From contig NC_085845.1 of the NCBI RefSeq assembly GCF_035594765.1, forward strand, positions 174,608,897 through 174,672,896: DNA of 64,000 nt. Direction: 5' to 3'. The DNA comes from Anolis carolinensis (lineage: Eukaryota). Below, in pieces: positions 1,341 through 56,638 of this stretch. The translations under genes were made by a program, and so were the position numbers. Under the pieces are notes generated by a model. That model worked only from the letters and a program-made list of their open reading frames with translations, was not told the DNA's origin and did not search any database. How positions within the stretch are numbered: position 1 is the first letter of the stretch; each line of letters begins with the position of its first letter.

Positions 1341-4135
1341 CCACCTGGGTTTAGGCCACGACTCATGCTACAAATTAAAGAGATTTGGAGCTTCTAAGCA
1401 TAACTCACTCCTGTTTTGGCTGTGCAGCAGGAAATAAAAAGAGGGCCCATGGAGAACAGATAGTATGGAACAGGAAGACACCAAAATGATATTGCTTTGA
1501 CCTCTGCAGAAATACCTGCAATGCAGTTGAGCCAGAATTTATTGTGGGTTGTGGGCTGTCTCTCCCATAGAGGACTCAGAGAAGAAACACAATGATACAT
1601 CACACTCTTGTAGCACTTCTCTATGACTTCGTCTTTATTCAATACAGGATTTGTGGATACACCCAATGGAAAAATTCTTGATTTGATTAGTATACAAGCA
1701 AAGCTATAGCCAGTTAACAATCTTTCAGACATAACAATTAGAGGGAAATTGCAAGTTGCACCTGGATGGATGAGAATTTGATTTTTTTAATAAGACCTTT
1801 ATAATATTTGTACAGTTCTTCATAAACATGGCCAAGAGAACTTGAGCTTTCTAAAAATAGAGAAAAGAATCATCATTATAGTCAGTTAATCTTTGAATAT
1901 TTGGTCCTTAAAATCTGGCTTTCAGTATCTGTGCATTCAGCCTTGTTTGCAGGCCTGAATTAGAACTGACACTTCTTTTCTCTAACAGTCTTCTCAACCT
2001 TAATAGCTACATGGCAGGTGGGTAGACAACATGGCCCTCTCAGGTGTCTAGAAGATTTGGAGAGTAAAGATTATTCAGGATTTATTTGGTTTCTTTTTTA
2101 ATAAGAGTTTACATTAATTTTAGAAGTTCCTCTTCAGAAGAATTGAAAGAATTTTTTTTTAAAACAATTGGATAATGAGAGAAATGAAACGGGAACACTG
2201 CCATCCTTCCTATACCCATGGTAAAGTTTGAGAAGTGAACATGTACAATATTTTAGAGCTATTCTCTCTCAATCTCATTCTCTATCAGGGTGTATTCACA
2301 CTTTAGAATTACTGCAGTTTCAGCCCACTTTAACTGTTATGGTTCAATGCTATGGACTCCTGCGATTTTTAGTTTGGTGAGACATCAGTACTTTTAGCAG
2401 AAAAGGCTAGAGCCTGTGTAAAACTGCAACTCCTATGACTCCATAGCATTGGACCGAGGCAGTTAATGTGGTATCCAACAATGCACCCTCAGTCCTTGAT
2501 TCATGAAAAAGGCAGATACCAGAGCTGTCTAGACATAATGCCTTCTGATCTACAGGCCTTTTTTGTTATTCCTACTGCTGTGGTCATAGTGGATGGGATA
2601 GCTAGTTGTCTATTATTGTTGTTTCATTTTTAAATGAAAAGGAGCACTAGAAGCTGGTTTCAGAATCAGAAAATTGGAGTGGCAAAGGTTGTTTAATCCT
2701 TTCCCAGGTTTATGATGTCGTAAATCCATAATTTTGGCTGGTAAAAACCATTTCCCCAACTACTCCAGCCATGAAGGAAAACATGCATGTAATCCTAAAT
2801 TTTTCTGCAGTGAAATAGAATATCCATCTATATGTGGAATTTTAATTTTAGTTGGTTTTTTAAAAATCTGACAAAGTGAACCAGGTTTCTTATATGCCCA
2901 TTTCCAGCCTGCTACAGCTACTTGTTTTTCTTTTTCTTCCAAAGTAAGAGGTATACATTTGCATGTCACTTTTTGCTTGGCCTTCAATAGTGAAAGAAAT
3001 GCATTATGAAGCTGTACAGGAGTGTTTACATACATTCTTATGTCTACTGTTCCAGGTTTATGCCATCACATTAAAAACAGAGTCTGAGAGACCATTTACT
3101 GCATGAACCATGGCACAAATAAAACATCGCCAGCCTAAGAAGAATGTGCTCTTTTCCATTAGCACATGCCATTGCATTTTTTTTTTAGAATTTTGAAAAA
3201 ACCCTTTATTTGCATTATCAAAATGTAAAGCAAAAAAGTTTAGTGTTGACAATGTCGTGCTCCATACGTCAAGCTTTCATTGCATAGAATGAAATAAAAT
3301 GCCATTGCATTTTGAAGTGCTCCTCAAACAAGGCTGGAACTTGTCGAATGAGAAGGATATACTGTAATCTTATGCCACCATTATATATCTGCATGCACCA
3401 AATGGGTGAAGAAGCTATACAGAATGCATGGGTTAGTGATGGCCTTCAATACTCCAACTGGGCACTAGCCTTATCTCATTGTTGACATATGATTGTCAAT
3501 AGTATGGGCTGTATAATATATGCAGAATTTGGAAAAAATACTTTTTGGTCTAGAACTGACAAAATCCCCAATCAGACTGAATGCTGCAAATTGTAGTCCA
3601 AATGGAAACATCCCCATGCTTTTTCATTGAGAATCCTCCTCATATGTCTCTATCAGGCATCCTTCACAGGGGCAGGATGGTGAACTGCCCAGATTTTTCA
3701 TCCCTAAGATGAAAAATCCTTTAGAACACACATTGCCCTGCATGCATGCTGGTATCATATAGAGCATGTTCTGTAATAAATATACATTTAGTACTCTCAG
3801 GGATGGCATAGGGATGAAAAATTCTCTTTCATGCTGCACAATTATAGTATTTTTATGGTACTTTAATTGCCATTGGGGTCCAAAGAGGTCCTGGGTTTTT
3901 CAGTTTAGTGAAGCATTAGACCTCTCTGGAAGAAAACTTGAACTGACTCATGAAACAACAAATCACAAGATTCCATATGACTGAGCCATGGCAGTTATAG
4001 CGGCATCAAAGTGTTATCATTTCAGAATGTGAAAGAGACCTCACCAATCCATTTTTGACTTTAGGTTCTTTCTATCCCTAATGTGAAATCATTTTCAAAT
4101 TTTGACAAATTCTTCAAAAACAAACAGAAACGAAA

Positions 4136-4442
4136 CCCCAAGGACAGCTAATGACTGCCCCCCAGGCAAGAGACAAACCTTTCCAATGCTAACTAGGGTG
4201 ATTAACTGAAACATTAATGCTGGCTTCCAACTCACAAAGGACTCTTGTCACACCCTGGACTCTCCACAGATATATATTTTTTTCCTTTCCTTGCCTAGTT
4301 TATCCATTCCTCACAACCTCTGAGGATGCCTGCCATAGATGTGGACGAAACGTCAGGAGAGAATACTTCTGGAACATGGCCACATAGCCCGAAAGACATA
4401 CAACAACCCTGTGATCCCGGCCATGAAAGCCTTCGACAACAC
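4136..4442 (+). mobile_element. Penelope-like retroelement terminal fragment
   Basis: Resembles the lizard Penelope end (...ccggccatgaaagccttcgacaacac); contains a hammerhead motif; flanked by a 12-bp direct repeat ACAGAAA(C/T)GAAA at 4124-4135 and 4443-4454. Confidence 0.8.
4317..4357 (+). ncRNA. Minimal type I hammerhead ribozyme motif
   Basis: CCU - CUGAGGA(U) - GCCUGC/GUGGAC stem II - GAAAC - GUC - AGG; complete catalytic core with palindromic ACGU in place of stem III. Confidence 0.8.
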
Positions 4443-5202
4443 ACAGAAATGAAATTCTCCCTCATTTGCTCTGGCCAAATTAAATAGGTGCAGATATTTC
4501 TAACATGGAGAGGATGATGTCATAACTGCTTGTAACAGAGTTGTTAATTAGAAGAAACTTGCAACAAATACTGATGATTTCCATGTCAGTGGGACACTGA
4601 ATGCACTTCAAATTTTTATCCACATTTAAAGGTGCATTCCAAGATACTGACACTTATCCCTAAGGAGATTCAGCTTTTTTAAATAGCTCATCTAAAGCTG
4701 AAGAGACAAGTACTACACTTCCATAGATGAAGCTATCAATTTTAGTTTCTCTACATGTTTGAATTTTTTAATTTTATATTCTTTGATTCCCAAATATGAA
4801 GACATTTCTGTGGAATGTGAAAGCAATAAGGGCGACTCCCCCCCATCCCCCTGAAATGGTTTTCTGCATTTTCAGCTAAAATTGACCAAAATGCAACGTG
4901 AAAGTAACCATGCGTAACTTCCCTTTTCTATTTCCAGTGGGTTTGGTTTTTGCCTGTTTTTCAGGCCATTGCTGGGAAAATAAATAGCCTGGGGGATTAG
5001 GAGATGTTTGACAGAACATCATACATTTGTGCATCTTCTGTAAATTGTGGGTGATCTATAAAGTTTATGGGGACTTGAGAGATAGGGGTTACATGGAGCC
5101 CATAAGCTGCACTTTCTCCACCCCTAATTATATTGGAATTTCAAAAGGCTGTCCCAAGTATTAGCCTAACTCTAAACATTTTGCTGCCTGAGATAACATG
5201 GA

Positions 5203-5688
5203 ATGAGAGCGGGGGGCCTTTTCAGTGGCTGCTCCACAACTCTGGAACTCCCTGCCCAAGGAAGCCAAAGTGGCCCCTTCCTGCTGTCCCTCCAGCAGCA
5301 GGCTTTTAAAGATAGAGGATTTTAAGATTAATTCAGGGGATGCTCTGGTTTTTAACTTTTAATATGCTTTAATAGTTTTTAACTGTAAGTTTTTAATACA
5401 GAATTATATTTAATTCTTTTTTAATGTTTGCATTTGTATAGTTGTCTATTTTAAATTGTATGTTAATACTTTTATGTTAAGCCACTTTGAGTCTCCTTTG
5501 GGAGAAATGAAGTGGTGTATGAGTATTATAACAACAACAACATATTCTACGAAATTATATTTAATTCTGTTTTATTGTTTGCATTTGTATAGTTGTCTAT
5601 TTTAAATTGTATGTTAATACTTTTATATTAAGCCACTTTGAGTCTCCTTTGGGAGAAATGAAGTGGTGTATGAGTATTATAACAACAA
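5203..5688 (+). mobile_element. L2 LINE 3' end with duplicated tail
   Basis: gccttttcagtggctgctcc...ctctggaactccctgccc L2 C-terminal motif; T-rich UTR; terminal stem-loop ccactttgagtctc...aagtgg; (ACA)n; the last ~136 bp occur twice. Confidence 0.7.
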
Positions 5689-7209: not shown

Positions 7210-7889
7210 ACTTGCCAGTGTGATGTCTCTGCTCTTCACTATTTTGTCAAGGTTGGCCATTGCTCTCCTCCCAAGAAGTAAACTTCTTCTGATTTCCTGG
7301 CTGCAGTCTGCATCTGCAGTGATCTTCGCACCTAGAAATATAAAGTCTGTCACTGCCCCTCCACGTTTTCTCCCTCTATTTGCCAGTTATCAGTAGGTGT
7401 AGTTGCCATGATCTTGGTTTTCTTGACGTTTAACTGCAACCCAGCTTTTGCACTTTCTTCTTTCACCTTGGTAATAAGGCTCCTCAGCTCCTCCTCACTT
7501 TCAGCCATCAGAGTGGTATCATCTGCATACCTAAGGTTGTTAGTGTTTCTTCCAGCGATTTTAACTCTGGCCTTAGATTCCTCAAGCCCCGCATGTCGCA
7601 TGATGTGTTCTGCATACAAGTTGAATAGGGAGGGTGAAGGTATGCAGCCCTGCCGCACTCCTTTCCCAATCTTGAACCAGTCTGTTGTTCCGTGATCTGT
7701 TCTTACTGTGGCTACTTGGTCTTTATACAGATTTCTCAGGAGACAGACAAGGTGACTTGGTATCCCCATACCACCAAGAACATGCCATAGTTTATTATGA
7801 TCCACACAGTTGAAGGCTTTAGAATAGTCAATAAAGCAGAAGTAGATGTTTTTCTGAAACTCCCTGGCTTCCTCCATTATCCAGCGGAA
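7210..7889 (-). mobile_element. RTE-BovB LINE, internal reverse-transcriptase fragment
   Basis: Translates as WIMEEAREFQKNIYFCFIDYSKAF...GVRQGC...NNLRYADDTTLMAESEEEL...; one frameshift near 7355, then TDFIFLGAKIT...KSRDITL; matches the BovB ORF. Confidence 0.93.
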
Positions 7890-8534
7890 TAAATAATAAA
7901 TAAACCCCAAGATTTGCAAACCTTTGGGGTGGGGTGTTCTAGGCAAAAAGAAGTCTAGTGAGGAGTTAATGGAGGACTAAGCTCATTCAATGGCCATAAA
8001 TTACCAAAAGACTGAAAACTATGGTTGCCATAGAGGAAAAAGAATGAATATTATTAGCTTTGAAAAAAGCATTGCTGGCTGGCTTGTATCATGAACATCA
8101 GGAGGTTTTTTTTGTACACATATCTTTTTGTATACTGTCTTCAGTATGAATGAAACTCAAGTGCACTAGAAACTCGATGTGCAACAGTTTACAGTTTCTT
8201 TCACACTCAAGCTAGTGTACAAAATGATCAATCAACTGAAGATCTATTGAAAATAATAGATAATACAAATGAAAGGAAGTTCCCATTTATGTCCAAGAGC
8301 ACAAACTAGTAAAATACCCAAAAGGTTGGAAAAAGTGTTTCATGGGTTACCCAACATCACCCAGTCACAGTATCTTAAGAGAATCCAGAGATGTTGTCTT
8401 ATAATCATAATGCAGCTTTAAAAATGTTCTAAATGCTAAAGTTGCTCTAAATAAAAAATTACAAAATTGCTACCTGGAAATAAAAAACCTGGTTGATTTG
8501 ACCAACAGACATTGGGGCCCATGCAGGTTTCTCC

Positions 8535-14551: not shown

Positions 14552-14586
14552 ATGCAAGCCATCAAGTGTGTGGTGGTCGGAGATGG
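14552..14586 (+). CDS. RAC2: RAC2 coding exon 1 (MQAIKCVVVGDG)
   Basis: ATG at 14552, 35 nt, GTACGT donor at 14587; canonical Rac N-terminus. The six exons (35+72+118+63+160+131 = 579 nt) join into a 192-aa Rac GTPase. Confidence 0.97.
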
Positions 14587-16674
14587 GTACGTATGATGCC
14601 TTTGAGGCACAGGGGAGAGTGGGGGGAAGGAGTGAGCCTTGCATGAACATCTTGCTTCCTCTGATGCCCTATTAGCTGGGTTGCATGCTCTTTCTTGCTC
14701 TATGTCTCTTTTAGAGTGGACATGCAAGCATGATGGGAAAGAGTGATCCAAGGCAACAAGGGCAGAAAAATAACATTTAACAAAATGCAGGACAAAAAGA
14801 TAGTTTCAGTTAAATGCAAGTCTGGAATGTGTGTTATTTCTGTGGCATTTTTCAGCAGAACTATCATTGATGGCAGAATCAAGGCCAGAATGATTATCCC
14901 TTGCTGAGTGGTTCATGACCACTTTATGCAGTTTGGTTCAGATGAATGTTTCATACACCGCTTTGTTAATGCCGGTGACCTTCAAAAGTACAATACAAAA
15001 GCGTCTCATATGTTGGATTAAAAGCTAGCAAAACTAGCAGAGTGCAGCAAGCTCTCAAATGAAACAAGAACAAAAATATGGTGTTTGTGACCTTGCGTCA
15101 GGGCTGGGATTTCTCTGCATGATGATGGTGAAGAACATATATGACTATTCATTTTGCATGGGATGCTGCGAAAGCATTTGTCTGTCTGAAAGCATTTGCC
15201 ATAAGCAATAAATACACCAGGCTGCTGTGACCTGTGCAGATGTATTCCTGATGTTAGTGTACATAAGCTAGAGGCCAGGAGTTGACACTCAAGAGATAAG
15301 TGTAGCCCTAAGAGGAATATCCTGTTCCTGACCAACAGTTTCCAGTCCAGAAGCAAAACCGGGTTGTGGCATGGAAGCTGTTGGTCTGGGATTTGTCATC
15401 AGACTGCTTTTTATGTACAGTAAGACCTTGGGCTCTCCTTTTCCCAGAGTTCCCCTCCACTCACCCATTACATTTTGACTGGTGGGAGCCTTAGCACAAT
15501 GCCAACATGTTTTGTTGAAAGAAATAAGCAGAACTGGAGAATGTTCGCTTTTCTTTACCTATAAATTACAAAATCCCCAAACTTCCTCTTGGCAAAAAGT
15601 AGTGGAGAGGGATATTTCAAGTGGAGGCCAACACTTTGAGGAAGTGACCAGTTTGCAACAGGCCAAAGGCTTAGCCCTACTCCACCCCCAAAGTCACTTC
15701 ATTGTAGTCATTGGCTGTCCTGGTCATAGCCATTGACCAAAGCAGCTGATGACTGTGCCAAGGGGTGGATTTGGGAAGTCATTGCCATATGGAACATAAC
15801 ATCCTTTTACTGGGATAGCTTGTTGTGGGTGGAGGACATTTGTAAGACAATTCATCTCCTTCCTGACAATATTATTTGGCTGTGACTCAAAACCATGTTC
15901 TTTTCCATACGATGAAGTCAGCTCAATAAGAGCTTGCAGCTTGCCTATGGAGATCACTTGCTTGCAATTCAGGGGCCCCGTTGCACAGTTAAAGCAATAT
16001 GATTCCAGTAACTGCCATGGTTCCATCTCATGGAATCTGCGTATTTGCAATTTAGCCAGAGAACTCTAGTGCTTCACCAAACTACAAACCCCAAAACTCT
16101 ATGGGATGCCGTTGTCATACTTAAAGTGGAATCGTAGTGCTATAAAGGTGTGGTGTGGAAGGCCCTTGGACTATAGTACACCTAAACCAGTAGAAGACCT
16201 TCTTCTTCAGCAATATGAAAGGAACACAGTCTCAACTTCCTGCCCTTTGGGTAGACCGTGGATCATGTGTTTGAAACTTCTTAGAGCACAATGCCTTATG
16301 CTTAGAAGGAAGAGTGAGGCATGGGAAGGATGGGAGAAATTCAAAGCATTCAAGCATTGAGAAGTTAAAGCCTATTTCTATATCTGGAGTTTTTATTATG
16401 TCACCCAATTAGGCCAGAACCAAAGCATGCAACATTTGCCCCTTCCACACCTAAACAGTTGCTTCCTCTTAAAAGTCCCCAAAGAGGAAGTCTACATGAA
16501 CACAGATGCCTTAAAGAGAAAAAGAGAGAACAAGAAAAGCAGGTGAAACTGAAGGTTACAGTTTCAGCCAATTACAGTATTATAAGAACCAGATAAAGAG
16601 AAGGATTTCAGCCTCAGACTCCAAAAAACAATGGCTAATAAAATAATTTTGGATTGGACAGACTAATGTCTGAC

Positions 16675-20879: not shown

Positions 20880-21380
20880 TAGTCTACAAGACATGTAAGA
20901 ATGAGGTTGATCATGATCCAGCTAGATACCAGTTGCACCATGGAAGATCTCTGGTGACTCTGAGTGCATTAAGCCCAGCTATAAGTTACACAAAAAAACT
21001 TTTCCCGGTAAAAGTTACAAATTTAGCACCCAATTGAATGGTCACATATCAGAGTTGAAAAGTGACAGGCTTTTTGCCATCAGGACTTGAAATCAATCCA
21101 GAGAGAGAAGGAGTATAGGTCGGTCTGGCTAGATAATTGAAGTCTAAGAAATTTTTTGAATTAGATACAACTTAGCTTGATGATTTAGGTAAAAAATGCT
21201 GCTCTTTGGCAAGGTTTGTCAGATGTAAGACCAGTTTTTATTTAATTTTATTTCTGCCTGTTCTTAAAAATTGGTTTTAAAAATCATGATTACTATTAAA
21301 GTGAAAAAATTAAAAGAGGAGAAAAGGGAAGCGAGTAAAGTACATAGGAAATAAACATTGGCTGTACATGTATGTTAATA

Positions 21381-21703
21381 CAGTAGAGTCTCACTTATCC
21401 AACATAAACAGGCCGGCAGAACATTGGATAAGCGAATATGTTGGATAATAAGGAGGGATTAAGGAAAAGCCTATTAAACATCAAATTAGGTTATGGTTTT
21501 ACAAATTAAGCACCAAAACATCATGTTATACCACAAATTTGACAGAAAAAGTAGTTCAATACACAGTAATGCTATGTAGAAATTACTGTATTTACGAACT
21601 TGGCACCAAAATATCACGATGTATTGAAAACATTGACTACAAAAATGCGTTGGATAATCCAGAACATTGGATAAGCGAGTGTTGGATAAGTTAGACTCTA
21701 CTG
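21381..21703 (+). mobile_element. Tc1/mariner MITE copy 1 (323 bp), RAC2 intron 4
   Basis: TIR CAGTAGAGTCTCACTTATCCAAC, TA target duplication. Confidence 0.9.
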
Positions 21704-22140
21704 TATAAGGTAAGGGTGACACATACTCCATGAAACCCCAAGATCAACAATCTCTATTTAATTTAGTTTTCTCACCCCAAAATGTCCACTGAGGGTCCAA
21801 ATGTTCTCACCCCAAAATGTTCACTAAGATCAGAAGAGGCAGTTTTTAAAAAGATGGGAACTTAACAAGAGTAAAACAGTCTGATGAAATTGTCACTGGA
21901 CTCTTTAGAGATCATTCAGGGGCATTTGGAGGCATTTTGGTTTGGTTTTTTAGAATGCTGCAGTGTGTTTGTGGGTGTTGCAACCCTCGTTTCCTGGGGG
22001 CCAGTGCAACCTAACTAACCCCCAGTTGAATAGGTTCACCCTTGATATAAAGTGATTATATTTAAAAAACACATTTTCTTGATGTTAACATCCATACAAT
22101 ACAGATTTATGCTCATTAACAATCTCAAATTTTCCTATAG

Positions 22141-22305
<165 letters not shown>

Positions 22306-22783
22306 TGACAGTGTGGGAGGGAAAGGGTCTAGATTCAACCTGTGTCAGTTCAGACACTAGAAATTCATCTCAGTAAAAACTCAAAAATTGTTTTGTGTAC
22401 TACAGCCTCTAAAATTAACATTATGTGAACAAGGGTAGATCAGCAATTCCTTTAGATGGAAAGCATGAGCACAAGGATACGTATATAGTCCCATAAAAAG
22501 CCTTTTGAAATTCTTAGTTATCACTACACATTTTGGCATTATATAACTATTTGTATTTTGGGGGAAACATTAAGAAATACATATTTTCAAAAGTTAATTT
22601 GGAAGCAATTTCTTCAAAATTGTAGCTCTTAGAACCTATGAGTTTCACGTGTACTGCTCTTGTGAGTACCAGTTTATATCAGTTTCATTTTTTCTCTGTC
22701 TTACATAGATAAAGAAATGAAACTCAGTCTGGCAATGATAGTAAACAAGCATATATGACACATGATCAAACAATATATATATA

Positions 22784-23106
22784 CAGTAGAGTCTCACTTA
22801 TCCAACATAAATGGGCCGGCAGAACGTTGGATAAGTGAATATGTTGGATAATAAGGAGAGATTAAGGAAAAGCCTATTAAACATCAAATTAGGTTATGAT
22901 TTTACAAATTAAGCAGCAAAACATCATGTTATACAACAAATTTGACAGAAAACGTAGTTCAATACACAGTAATGCTAGGTAGTAATTACTGTATTTACGA
23001 ATTTAGCACCAAAATATCACAATATATTGAAAACATTGACTACAAAAATGCGTTGGATAATCCAGAACATTGGATAAGTGAGTGTTGGAGAAGTGAGACT
23101 CTACTG
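22784..23106 (+). mobile_element. Tc1/mariner MITE copy 2 (323 bp), RAC2 intron 5
   Basis: Same TIRs; sits in a (TA)n run. Confidence 0.9.
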
Positions 23107-23116
23107 TATATATATA

Positions 23117-23439
23117 CAGTAGAGTCTCACTTATCCAACATAAACGGGCCGGCAGAATGTTGGATAAGCGAATATGTTGGATAATAAGGAGAGATTAAGA
23201 AAATGCCTATTAAACATCAAAATAGGTTATGATTTTACAAATTAACCACCAAAACATCATGTTAGACAACAAATTTGGCAGAAAAAGTAGTTCAATACGC
23301 AGTAATGCTATGTACTAATTACTGTATTTATGAATTTAGCACCAAAATATCACAATATATTGAAAACATTGACTATAAAAATGAGTTGGATAATCCAGAA
23401 CGTTGGATAAGCGAGTGTTGGATAAGTGAGACTCTACTG
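23117..23439 (+). mobile_element. Tc1/mariner MITE copy 3 (323 bp)
   Basis: Same TIRs; separated from copy 2 by (TA)5. Confidence 0.9.
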
Positions 23440-23916
23440 TATATATATCCTGAAAGAATGCTATCTCAAATAGTGAAATACATCGCATATGACTGTCCTT
23501 AACTGTGCCATCAACGGTGCAGGAACCCCACCAGAAGTTGACTATACAGCTGTGCTGGAGAATCTAGAGATTCCTAGAGGCATGTTCTCTTTAGGTATCT
23601 CTAAGCCCTCTCTGTGATCAACTTCTAGCAGATGTTGACCATAGTGTTGCACTGGACGACCTAGAAATTCTTAGAGAGGCCATATTAAACAAATCTGTGA
23701 ATAATCAAACCTACACAAATCAACCATGCAAATGTGGAAAGGTGACTGTATATCTTGCACATAGTATGTTTTGTTGTTCAATGATTTGCCACTGAAAATA
23801 AACACTAAATATATAGGTCTGTTTGTATAAACACTGCAAAAATTCCATTACGAGAGTGCACATATCTGAATCACAATACTAATTCTGCTTAATATAAATT
23901 TTGACTCCATCTAGAC

Positions 23917-24051
23917 CAGTGGTTTTCAACCTGTGGGTCCCCAGGTGTTTTGGCCTACAACTCCCAGAAATCCCAGCCAGTTTATCAGATGTTAGGATTT
24001 TTGGGAGTTGAAAGCCAAGACATCTGGGGACCCACAGATTGAGAACCACTG
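23917..24051. mobile_element. 135-bp palindromic hAT-Charlie MITE (SPIN-like TIRs)
   Basis: TIR CAGTGGTT(T/C)TCAA, 8-bp TSD ATCTAGAC. Confidence 0.88.
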
Positions 24052-24125
24052 ATCTAGACTTAAAATAGACTAATCTATGAGTCCTGCTCTAACCTATAGT
24101 GACTACTTAGGAAAGTCTGCATATA

Positions 24126-24433
24126 CAGTAGAGTCTCACTTATCCAACGTTCTGGATTATCCAACGCATTTTTGTAGTCAATGTTTTCAATTCATCATGA
24201 TAGTTTGGTGCTAAATTCGTAAATACAGTAATTACTACATAGCATTACTGCGTATTGAACTACTTTTTCTGCCAAATTTGTTGTCTAACATGATGTTTTG
24301 GTGGTTAATTTGTAAAATCATAACCTAATTTGATGTTTAATAGGCTTTTCCTTAATCCCTCCTTATTATCCAACATGTTCGCTTATCCAACGTTCTGCCG
24401 GCCTGTTTATGTTGGATAAGTGAGACTCTACTG
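24126..24433 (-). mobile_element. Tc1/mariner MITE copy 4 (308 bp, inverted)
   Basis: Reverse complement of copies 1-3, lacking one 15-bp subterminal repeat; TA flanks. Confidence 0.9.
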
Positions 24434-24573
24434 TACATACCATCTTAGAACATAGTTTTTGTTCTTGTTAACCAAGGAATGAATGCAGGGGACAGTATGC
24501 CAGAGGAGAAGGCAACAAACAGTCCTGGAAAACTATCAAAGCCATAATGGAAAGACCAAAGTTCTATCTAGAC

Positions 24574-55000: not shown

Positions 55001-55408
55001 CAGTTAATTGAGTATGAGAAGCAATCATGAAAAATGTTTGATCTTCTGGAATTCTTTGTCTCAAGTTTTAGAAGACCTGTCCAATGTGGTAAGCGATTAT
55101 GGTAGTGGTCATGAAGGATTATGAGAACGGGATTACTGGCCATGTGTGTGCCAACTACATTAGATAACAGCCCAATGGCATATAACAGCCTGTCCCTATT
55201 TGTTGTAACGGATCTCCAGAAAAATAAGGTGGGGATCAAATAAAGCTCTGAAAACCCAAAACCCTACTCTAATATTTTTTCCTCCTTTGGTTGTATAGTT
55301 GCTTACTATACTTTACTGTGGGTTATACAGTGAATTAGACATTAACTCTTGTGCTCTTCTTAAATGCAGACCCCTTTCAACTGATCCAGTGGGCTGAACA
55401 TTTCTGCC

Positions 55409-56638
55409 ATGGACAATTTCAACTTCACCACTACACTGAGTTCTTGGGAAGAGAACACAACAACCTCTGTTTCTGAGAACATTTCTCGAGCTACTGCCCT
55501 TGGTGTGGATGTCAGTGGTGTCCTTATTCCTATAGTATATCTCATTGTCTGTGTAGTGGGACTAGCCGGGAATTCCTTAGTCATCTATGTGGTTTTGTGC
55601 CACTCAGTCAGTGAATCTGTAACCAATGTCTACATCTTCAACTTGGCACTGGCAGATGAACTCTTTATGCTTGGCCTTCCCTTCTTGGCTGCTCAAAATG
55701 CATTGTCTTATTGGCCCTTTGGTTCATTTATGTGCCGGCTGGTCATGGCTGTAGATGCCACCAACCAATTCACTAGTATTTTTTGCCTGACTGTGATGAG
55801 TGTTGACCGCTACTTGGCTGTGGTGCACCCTGTGAAATCCTCAAAATGGAGGACAGCACGAGTGGCCAAGGCAGTCAGTGCCACTGTCTGGGTCCTCTCT
55901 TCAATAGTGGTGCTGCCAGTATTGGTGTTTTCAGAAGTCCCTCAGGGTATGAACACATGTCACATTAAGTGGCCTGAGCCTGCAGCTGTATGGCAAACTG
56001 GGTTCATTATCTACACAGCTACGCTTGGCTTCTTTGGACCACTACTGGTCATCTGCCTTTGCTACCTCCTTATTGTTGTCAAGGTTCGATCTTCAGGCAG
56101 GAAGGTACGAGCAGTGACAGCCAAGCGCAAGCTATCTGAGCAGCGGGTCACACACATGGTGGTAGCTGTAGTGGCAGTCTTTGTGCTCTGCTGGCTGCCT
56201 TTCTATGTGCTCAATATCATCAATGTTATCTGGACTTTGCCAGAGGAACCATCTCTTTTTGGTATCTACTTCCTTGTTGTAGTGTTGCCCTATGCCAACA
56301 GCTGTGCTAATCCCATCATCTATGGCTTCCTCTCCTATCGCTTCAAGCAGGGTTTCCGTAGGGCCCTCTTGAGACCATCCCGTCGAGTGCAGAGCCAAGA
56401 TGCAACAGCAACTGCGGCAGACAAGATGGAAAAAGAAGAGGAGGAAGAAGAGGAGGAGGGGGAGGAGGAAGAGATGGAGGCAGAAGCAAGTGAGATCTGC
56501 AAGATTGCCCAGAATGGCAATGGCAGACAAGAATGTCGTTCCATCAGTGGGTCTGGAAGAGGAAGTGAACAGAAGCAACTTCCTGAGGAACCTGTTAGCT
56601 GTGAGAAGCCCAGCATCATGAGCATTAGCTACTTATAA
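55409..56638 (+). CDS. SSTR3: Somatostatin receptor type 3 (class A GPCR, 409 aa)
   Basis: Intronless 7-TM ORF with gccATGG Kozak; GN, LALAD, DRY, CWLP and NPIIY motifs; D3.32 and NQFTS of somatostatin receptors; poly-Glu C-tail, no helix-8 Cys and C-terminal ISYL are SSTR3-specific; lies next to RAC2 as in mammals. Confidence 0.96.

Follow-up and report, generated by a model that had tools for sequence, protein, structure and literature searches.

This locus raises the question of whether a hammerhead-like motif at 4317–4357, upstream of a RAC2-like gene in a 64-kb stretch of the green anole genome (the window), is a genuine ribozyme and, if so, whether it acts where it now lies. An earlier note had read it as a minimal, dimer-dependent Penelope-like hammerhead and had proposed that dispersed copies might form a trans-activated network of RNA cleavage. 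We conclude with high confidence that it represents the minimal hammerhead already known from Poseidon_Ac (PAc), carried in a solo fragment of ∼305 bp that likely arose by reverse transcription from position +118 of the element and is likely inert here. The hammerhead, the fragment, its flanking repeats, the RAC2-like exon, and the SSTR3-like gene described below lie on the forward (+) strand.

The coordinates proposed for the hammerhead were all re-read in the sequence, and all of them hold. Stem I is formed by CCU (4317–4319, 5′ strand) and AGG (4355–4357, 3′ strand), giving 3 bp that are not extendable, as 4316 and 4358 would oppose A to A. The core CUGAGGA (4320–4326) is followed by an extra base, U4327, so that this segment spans 4320–4327. 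Stem II and its 7-nt loop occupy 4328–4346; five of the six positions between the strands 4328–4333 and 4341–4346 are standard pairs, two of these being G-U, and C4329-A4345 is mismatched. The next segment (4347–4354) contains GAAA (4347–4350), the palindrome ACGU (4350–4353), and the cleavage nucleotide C4354. The palindrome is the sole stem III of the motif, a minimal helix available in a dimer only, and the view that a monomer has no stem III is thus upheld. In the standard hammerhead numbering, the core residues of the minimal type I hammerhead of Penelope-like elements (PLEs) are all present (C3-U4-G5-A6-N7-G8-A9, G12-A13-A14, A15.1-U16.1, and H17). The extra base after A9 is U4327, G10.1-C11.1 corresponds to G4328-C4346, and the palindromic 15.2-16.2 to C4351-G4352.

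Cervera and De la Pena (2014; PMC4209133) describe minimal hammerheads of metazoan PLEs that likewise have an additional base between positions 9 and 10.1, a G10.1-C11.1 pair, and a palindromic 15.2-16.2, together with a long helix II, a short helix I, and mostly single, dispersed motifs. All of these traits recur here, with helix I (3 bp) at the short end. According to the same text, such motifs were not cleaved as monomers and were weakly cleaved as dimers, and most of them occur singly within truncated PLEs. A search of one supplement file of that study gave no mention of Anolis.

A loose core pattern matches the window 19 times, where shuffled sequence gives 11.6 on average; since 14 of 100 shuffles reach 19, this count is not significant alone. 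The full minimal-hammerhead descriptor is far more selective: on both strands of the 64-kb window its sole match is the motif at 4317, and any match was obtained in only one of 200 resampled windows. The Rfam covariance models returned no hammerhead among five weak matches at E-values up to 10, and none at the gathering score.

Frangieh et al. (2024; PMC11167929) print a 361-nt RNA of Poseidon_Ac, a Penelope-like element of the green anole. Compared by eye, 132 of the 135 bases at 4309–4443 are identical to this template; the three differences, at 4345, 4365, and 4385, all occur as family letters in sequencing contigs as well. The PAc start codon, capitalised as AUG in the printed template, falls on 4326–4328 and thus reaches from the core into the beginning of stem II. 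Counting the published distance of 26 nt from that codon to the cut site leads to C4354, in agreement with the predicted cleavage after this base. The reverse-transcription start reported in the same paper, +111 to +118, corresponds to 4436–4443, and the template match ends at 4443, which is +118. Because the sequence and all three of these landmarks agree with PMC11167929, we assign the copy to PAc. The core features and the PAc identity together support a minimal Penelope-like type I hammerhead. The assignment to Penelope in the earlier note was correct as to the type of element, but it missed the named family and the extent of the element, which goes beyond the motif by ∼180 bp on the upstream side and by 86 bp on the downstream side.

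As delimited by contig depth and the template match, the element is a solo, ORF-less PAc fragment at 4136–4443, consisting of the pLTR and the first 118 nt of the ORF (the first 39 codons only). Its length is ∼305 bp, with an approximate 5′ end at 4136–4140. An autonomous PLE has an ORF encoding a reverse transcriptase and a GIY-YIG domain between tandem pLTRs; what is found here is a fragment, not a full element. Upstream of ∼4250, a comparison by eye shows the copy diverging from the published RNA, and a sister subfamily may therefore be its source. The stretch at 4409–4443 corresponds to the PLE ‘tail’ between two reverse-transcription start sites, with the AC-rich +111 to +118 (4436–4443) as the 3′ end of the element and 4409 as the putative other start site; PMC8557442 gives PLE tails of 30–40 bp and insertions that are tandem or inverted.

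The motif is, in short, the already known minimal hammerhead of Poseidon_Ac, real but ordinary. Compared with the PAc ribozyme of PMC11167929, the sequence is the same except for one base, and the start-codon overlap, the cut site, and the 3′ end are shared. The copy differs in having A rather than G at 4345, in ending at +118 without an ORF or a tandem partner, and in its more divergent 5′ pLTR part.

The abundance of the family was assessed in four of 24 sequencing runs (X1, X16, X20, and X22), whose contigs were aligned to 3800–4800 (1001 bases) at 85% likeness. X1 and X16 are DNA runs of different studies, and X22 is a small run guessed to be RNA. The matching contigs numbered 47,584 of 9.6 million in X1, 69,387 of 19.2 million in X16, 15,839 of 3.1 million in X20, and 1,761 of 133,367 in X22. 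In X1, the summed depth, which is not equivalent to copy number, rises from 65 (bin 4106–4139) to 56,772 (4140–4173) at the left edge and falls from 2.7 million (4412–4445) to 21 (4480–4513) at the right edge. Loose ends, where contigs continue into unrelated DNA, lie behind 4443 in 555, 349, 161, and 46 contigs of the four runs, and behind 4409 in six contigs of X22. The depth jump at ∼4140 and the drop after 4443 therefore define a fragment of ∼305 bp from a very abundant repeat with a common 3′ end, as expected of a high-copy interspersed repeat. An anole insertion table in PMC7561263 lists 16,208 Penelope insertions. In the 64-kb window the copy is nevertheless solitary, as had been proposed, with no second copy anywhere. 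An unrelated second high-copy repeat fragment lies just upstream, at 3936–4037 (X1 depth peak of 13,645).

The family depth is far higher over 4310–4443 than upstream, and head-to-tail joints, leading from 4379 back to 4306 and from 4443 back to 4311, are present in the DNA runs. Both features would suit a copy that, instead of being a single truncation event of the full element, is one unit of a retrozyme-like, non-autonomous repeat with its own mobility, and animal retrozymes have been derived from PLE pLTRs, according to bioRxiv 10.64898/2026.07.22.740005. As described in that preprint and in PMC7229834, non-LTR retrozymes resemble this locus in being short, non-coding repeats with a type I hammerhead for which a dimer is needed in vertebrates. 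They differ from it in being tandem, expressed as circles, and endowed mostly with canonical hammerheads, whereas this copy is single and its motif minimal and damaged. By the definition in the preprint, a retrozyme has at least two tandem units, each with a hammerhead; there is no tandem array at this locus, and the 3′ end of the copy is the PAc reverse-transcription start site. We therefore regard a retrozyme-like origin as extremely unlikely, and it would assign the copy to another parent, while the locus would still be judged a known repeat that is inert.

The joint from 4379 to 4306, with six letters between, describes a head-to-tail unit of ∼80 nt elsewhere in the genome that holds the whole hammerhead. 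It is seen in 9, 5, 1, and 2 contigs of the four runs, with a depth of 634 in X22. Such a unit could be a retrozyme-like tandem able to dimerise in cis.

Under the preferred reading, reverse transcription would have begun at the internal +118 site of the element and stopped ∼305 bases later, leaving a solo pLTR piece. The ends of the fragment are flanked by a candidate target-site duplication of 12 nt, whose left copy (4124–4135) is identical at 11 of 12 positions to the right copy (4443–4454), the first base of the latter being shared with the end of the element. A repeat as long, with one mismatch, was found in 12 of 1500 random placements, the search zone having been chosen after the fact. 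No empty site, i.e. a joint that skips the element, appears among the contig joints listed, a list that leaves 46 others aside. The description of the copy as flanked by a target-site duplication is thus plausible from the sequence of the repeat, but it gains no empty site from the joints listed. Both junctions are spanned by contigs without differences in X1, as is the right one in X16.

The likeness between the left flank (4119–4135) and the right end (4438–4454) runs five bases into the AC-rich end (15 of 17 identical), and this extension could represent microhomology at the priming junction. A second pair of short repeats, CAGATAT at 4267 and 4491, was rejected as a target-site duplication, as its left copy sits inside the element. 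We also rejected as a parent the reverse transcriptase ORF at 7353–7976 (− strand; Pfam RVT_1, E-value of 1.6e-27), since this fragment has no hammerhead beside it and looks RTE/BovB-like.

The one base that sets this ribozyme apart is a minority variant. At 4345, G makes up 94.6–99.0% of the summed depth in all four runs, and the copy carries the minority A; A4345 is therefore the derived state, which the copy would have acquired after insertion. The earlier note had suspected that the C4329-A4345 mismatch weakened stem II, and the folding models go further, in that the derived base removes it. With ViennaRNA, the energy of the stem II hairpin is −5.8 kcal/mol with G4345 and +1.4 kcal/mol with A4345, so that a stable helix II is seen with the family base in the isolated hairpin and is not seen in the native copy. 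The pair probability of stem II with the native A4345 is 0.00 (rounded) in all five sequence contexts. With the family G, it is 0.91–0.97 in the shortest context (56 nt) and at most 0.3 in the four longer ones, from which the models suggest that even an intact motif would be easily misfolded. Unconstrained folding gives no hammerhead and is no better than that of shuffles (z-scores of −0.2 to −1.2). About five near-private changes are found in 305 bases (4193, 4233, 4308, 4345, and 4385), and all of the core nucleotides are intact; the copy is young, and its youth and intact core weigh against the preferred reading of an inert relic.

The neighbourhood raises the alternative that the fragment was co-opted. 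A RAC-type ATG lies at 14552, on the strand of the motif and 10,195 bases further downstream, as expected from the proposed position ∼10 kb upstream of RAC2. It opens the first coding exon (14552–14588) of a RAC2-like gene, a neighbour without a demonstrated link to the ribozyme; another exon of this gene matches RAC2 best (103 bits, compared with 98 for RAC1 and 94 for RAC3). A fragment 10.2 kb upstream and on the same strand might act on RAC2 as DNA, as a pLTR promoter or enhancer, or might end an upstream transcript. PLE pLTRs typically contain promoters, according to a review (PMC6765202), and the junctions of this copy are seen in two DNA runs of different studies (the right one in both X1 and X16, the left one in X1). 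Weighed against this, the family is so abundant that a copy lying within 10 kb of some gene is unremarkable, and the copy is young. We consider such co-option exceedingly improbable.

Several other features lie in the window. Four copies of a ∼330-bp repeat (92–95% identity), two tandem and one inverted, lie at 21369–24439 in and around the RAC2 introns, and an intact, single-exon SSTR3-like receptor gene is found beyond the RAC2-like gene at 55385–56638. A 151-bp tandem duplication (97% identical) is located at 5397–5688.

What the parent ribozyme does is partly known from PMC11167929. The PAc RNA was cleaved only in the presence of the PAc protein; mutations of the core abolished this cleavage, and mutations of the endonuclease did not. 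The minimal RNA for activity of the protein in vitro ran to +172. Insertion in vitro did not require cleavage, and the cut site coincided with neither the start nor the end of any RNA-seq read. Thus, the parent ribozyme cuts after GUC only with the PAc protein, as published for the consensus RNA, and this cleavage likely involves two ribozyme copies pairing through ACGU. The copy ends at +118 and lacks +119 to +172 of the minimal protein-active RNA, and it may therefore fail to engage the PAc protein. Without a coding region, a partner within 64 kb, or the full RNA required by the protein, it would probably neither cut nor move.

These results bear directly on the proposed network of dispersed, trans-activated copies, for which we found no precedent among the open-access papers searched. 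Requirement for the protein, absence of RNA-seq reads at the cut site, and dispensability of cleavage for insertion (all from PMC11167929) argue against it, as does an end at +118 that falls short of the +172 required by the protein in vitro. In addition, dispersed copies have lost CpGs in the core at least as often as outside it: in X1, decayed forms amount to 12–30% at four core positions (19% at the catalytic G12) and to 8–25% at three positions outside, a rough comparison of depth-weighted contigs from mixed subfamilies, and X16, X20, and X22 show a similar pattern. The core thus bears no mark of selection in these data, which argues against a maintained network. Decayed forms at 4346–4352 are rarer in X22 (3–11%) than in X1 (12–30%), and this difference is also seen outside the core, which fits expression of younger copies. 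On the unique flanks of this copy, X22 has zero cover and is uninformative either way on its expression.

A more specific version is that intact PAc RNA, together with the PAc protein (a predicted dimer), pairs through stem I and ACGU with a transcript of the solo copy and cuts it after C4354, as part of such a network. The assay RNA of PMC11167929 contained a single ribozyme and, at 500 nM, was cut once the protein was added; the published cleavage may therefore take place between two molecules. A nested double hammerhead can be drawn for two copies, the PAc family is abundant and expressed, and schistosome repeat hammerheads cleave in cis or in trans in vitro, as summarised in PMC6765202. 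The pairing, on the other hand, would be limited to 10 intermolecular pairs spread over three short helices. In the model, even when both copies are intact, the active dimer is 13–19 kcal/mol less favourable than the ensembles of free monomers (47-nt strands), an energy that ignores tertiary contacts and gives the direction only. Further points against trans cleavage are a core that decays like its flanks, the missing +119 to +172, and the lack of cut-site reads in PMC11167929, though ordinary libraries may miss such ends. We judge this version very unlikely. Were a double hammerhead to form, the model suggests that the broken stem II would disable only the cutting half contributed by the copy, and its GUC could still be cleaved by an intact partner.

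It is similarly doubtful, at a very low probability, that a dimeric PAc protein joins intact Penelope RNA with host transcripts containing solo copies and lets the intact ribozyme half cut these at GUC, so that reactivation of the element would trim host RNAs at thousands of sites. Under this reading, a copy such as this one, whose stem II is dead and whose cut site is intact, would serve as a target only. If host transcripts were indeed cleaved in trans in cells, solo PLE hammerheads would gain a role in RNA turnover, a question that has been open since 2014; nothing at this locus points to it. As found, the locus is of little importance, since it holds a single decayed copy of an element that already has a name and a tested ribozyme. 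The copy could nevertheless be used as a natural stem II mutant, to distinguish PAc cleavage by one protein-folded molecule from cleavage by two paired ones.
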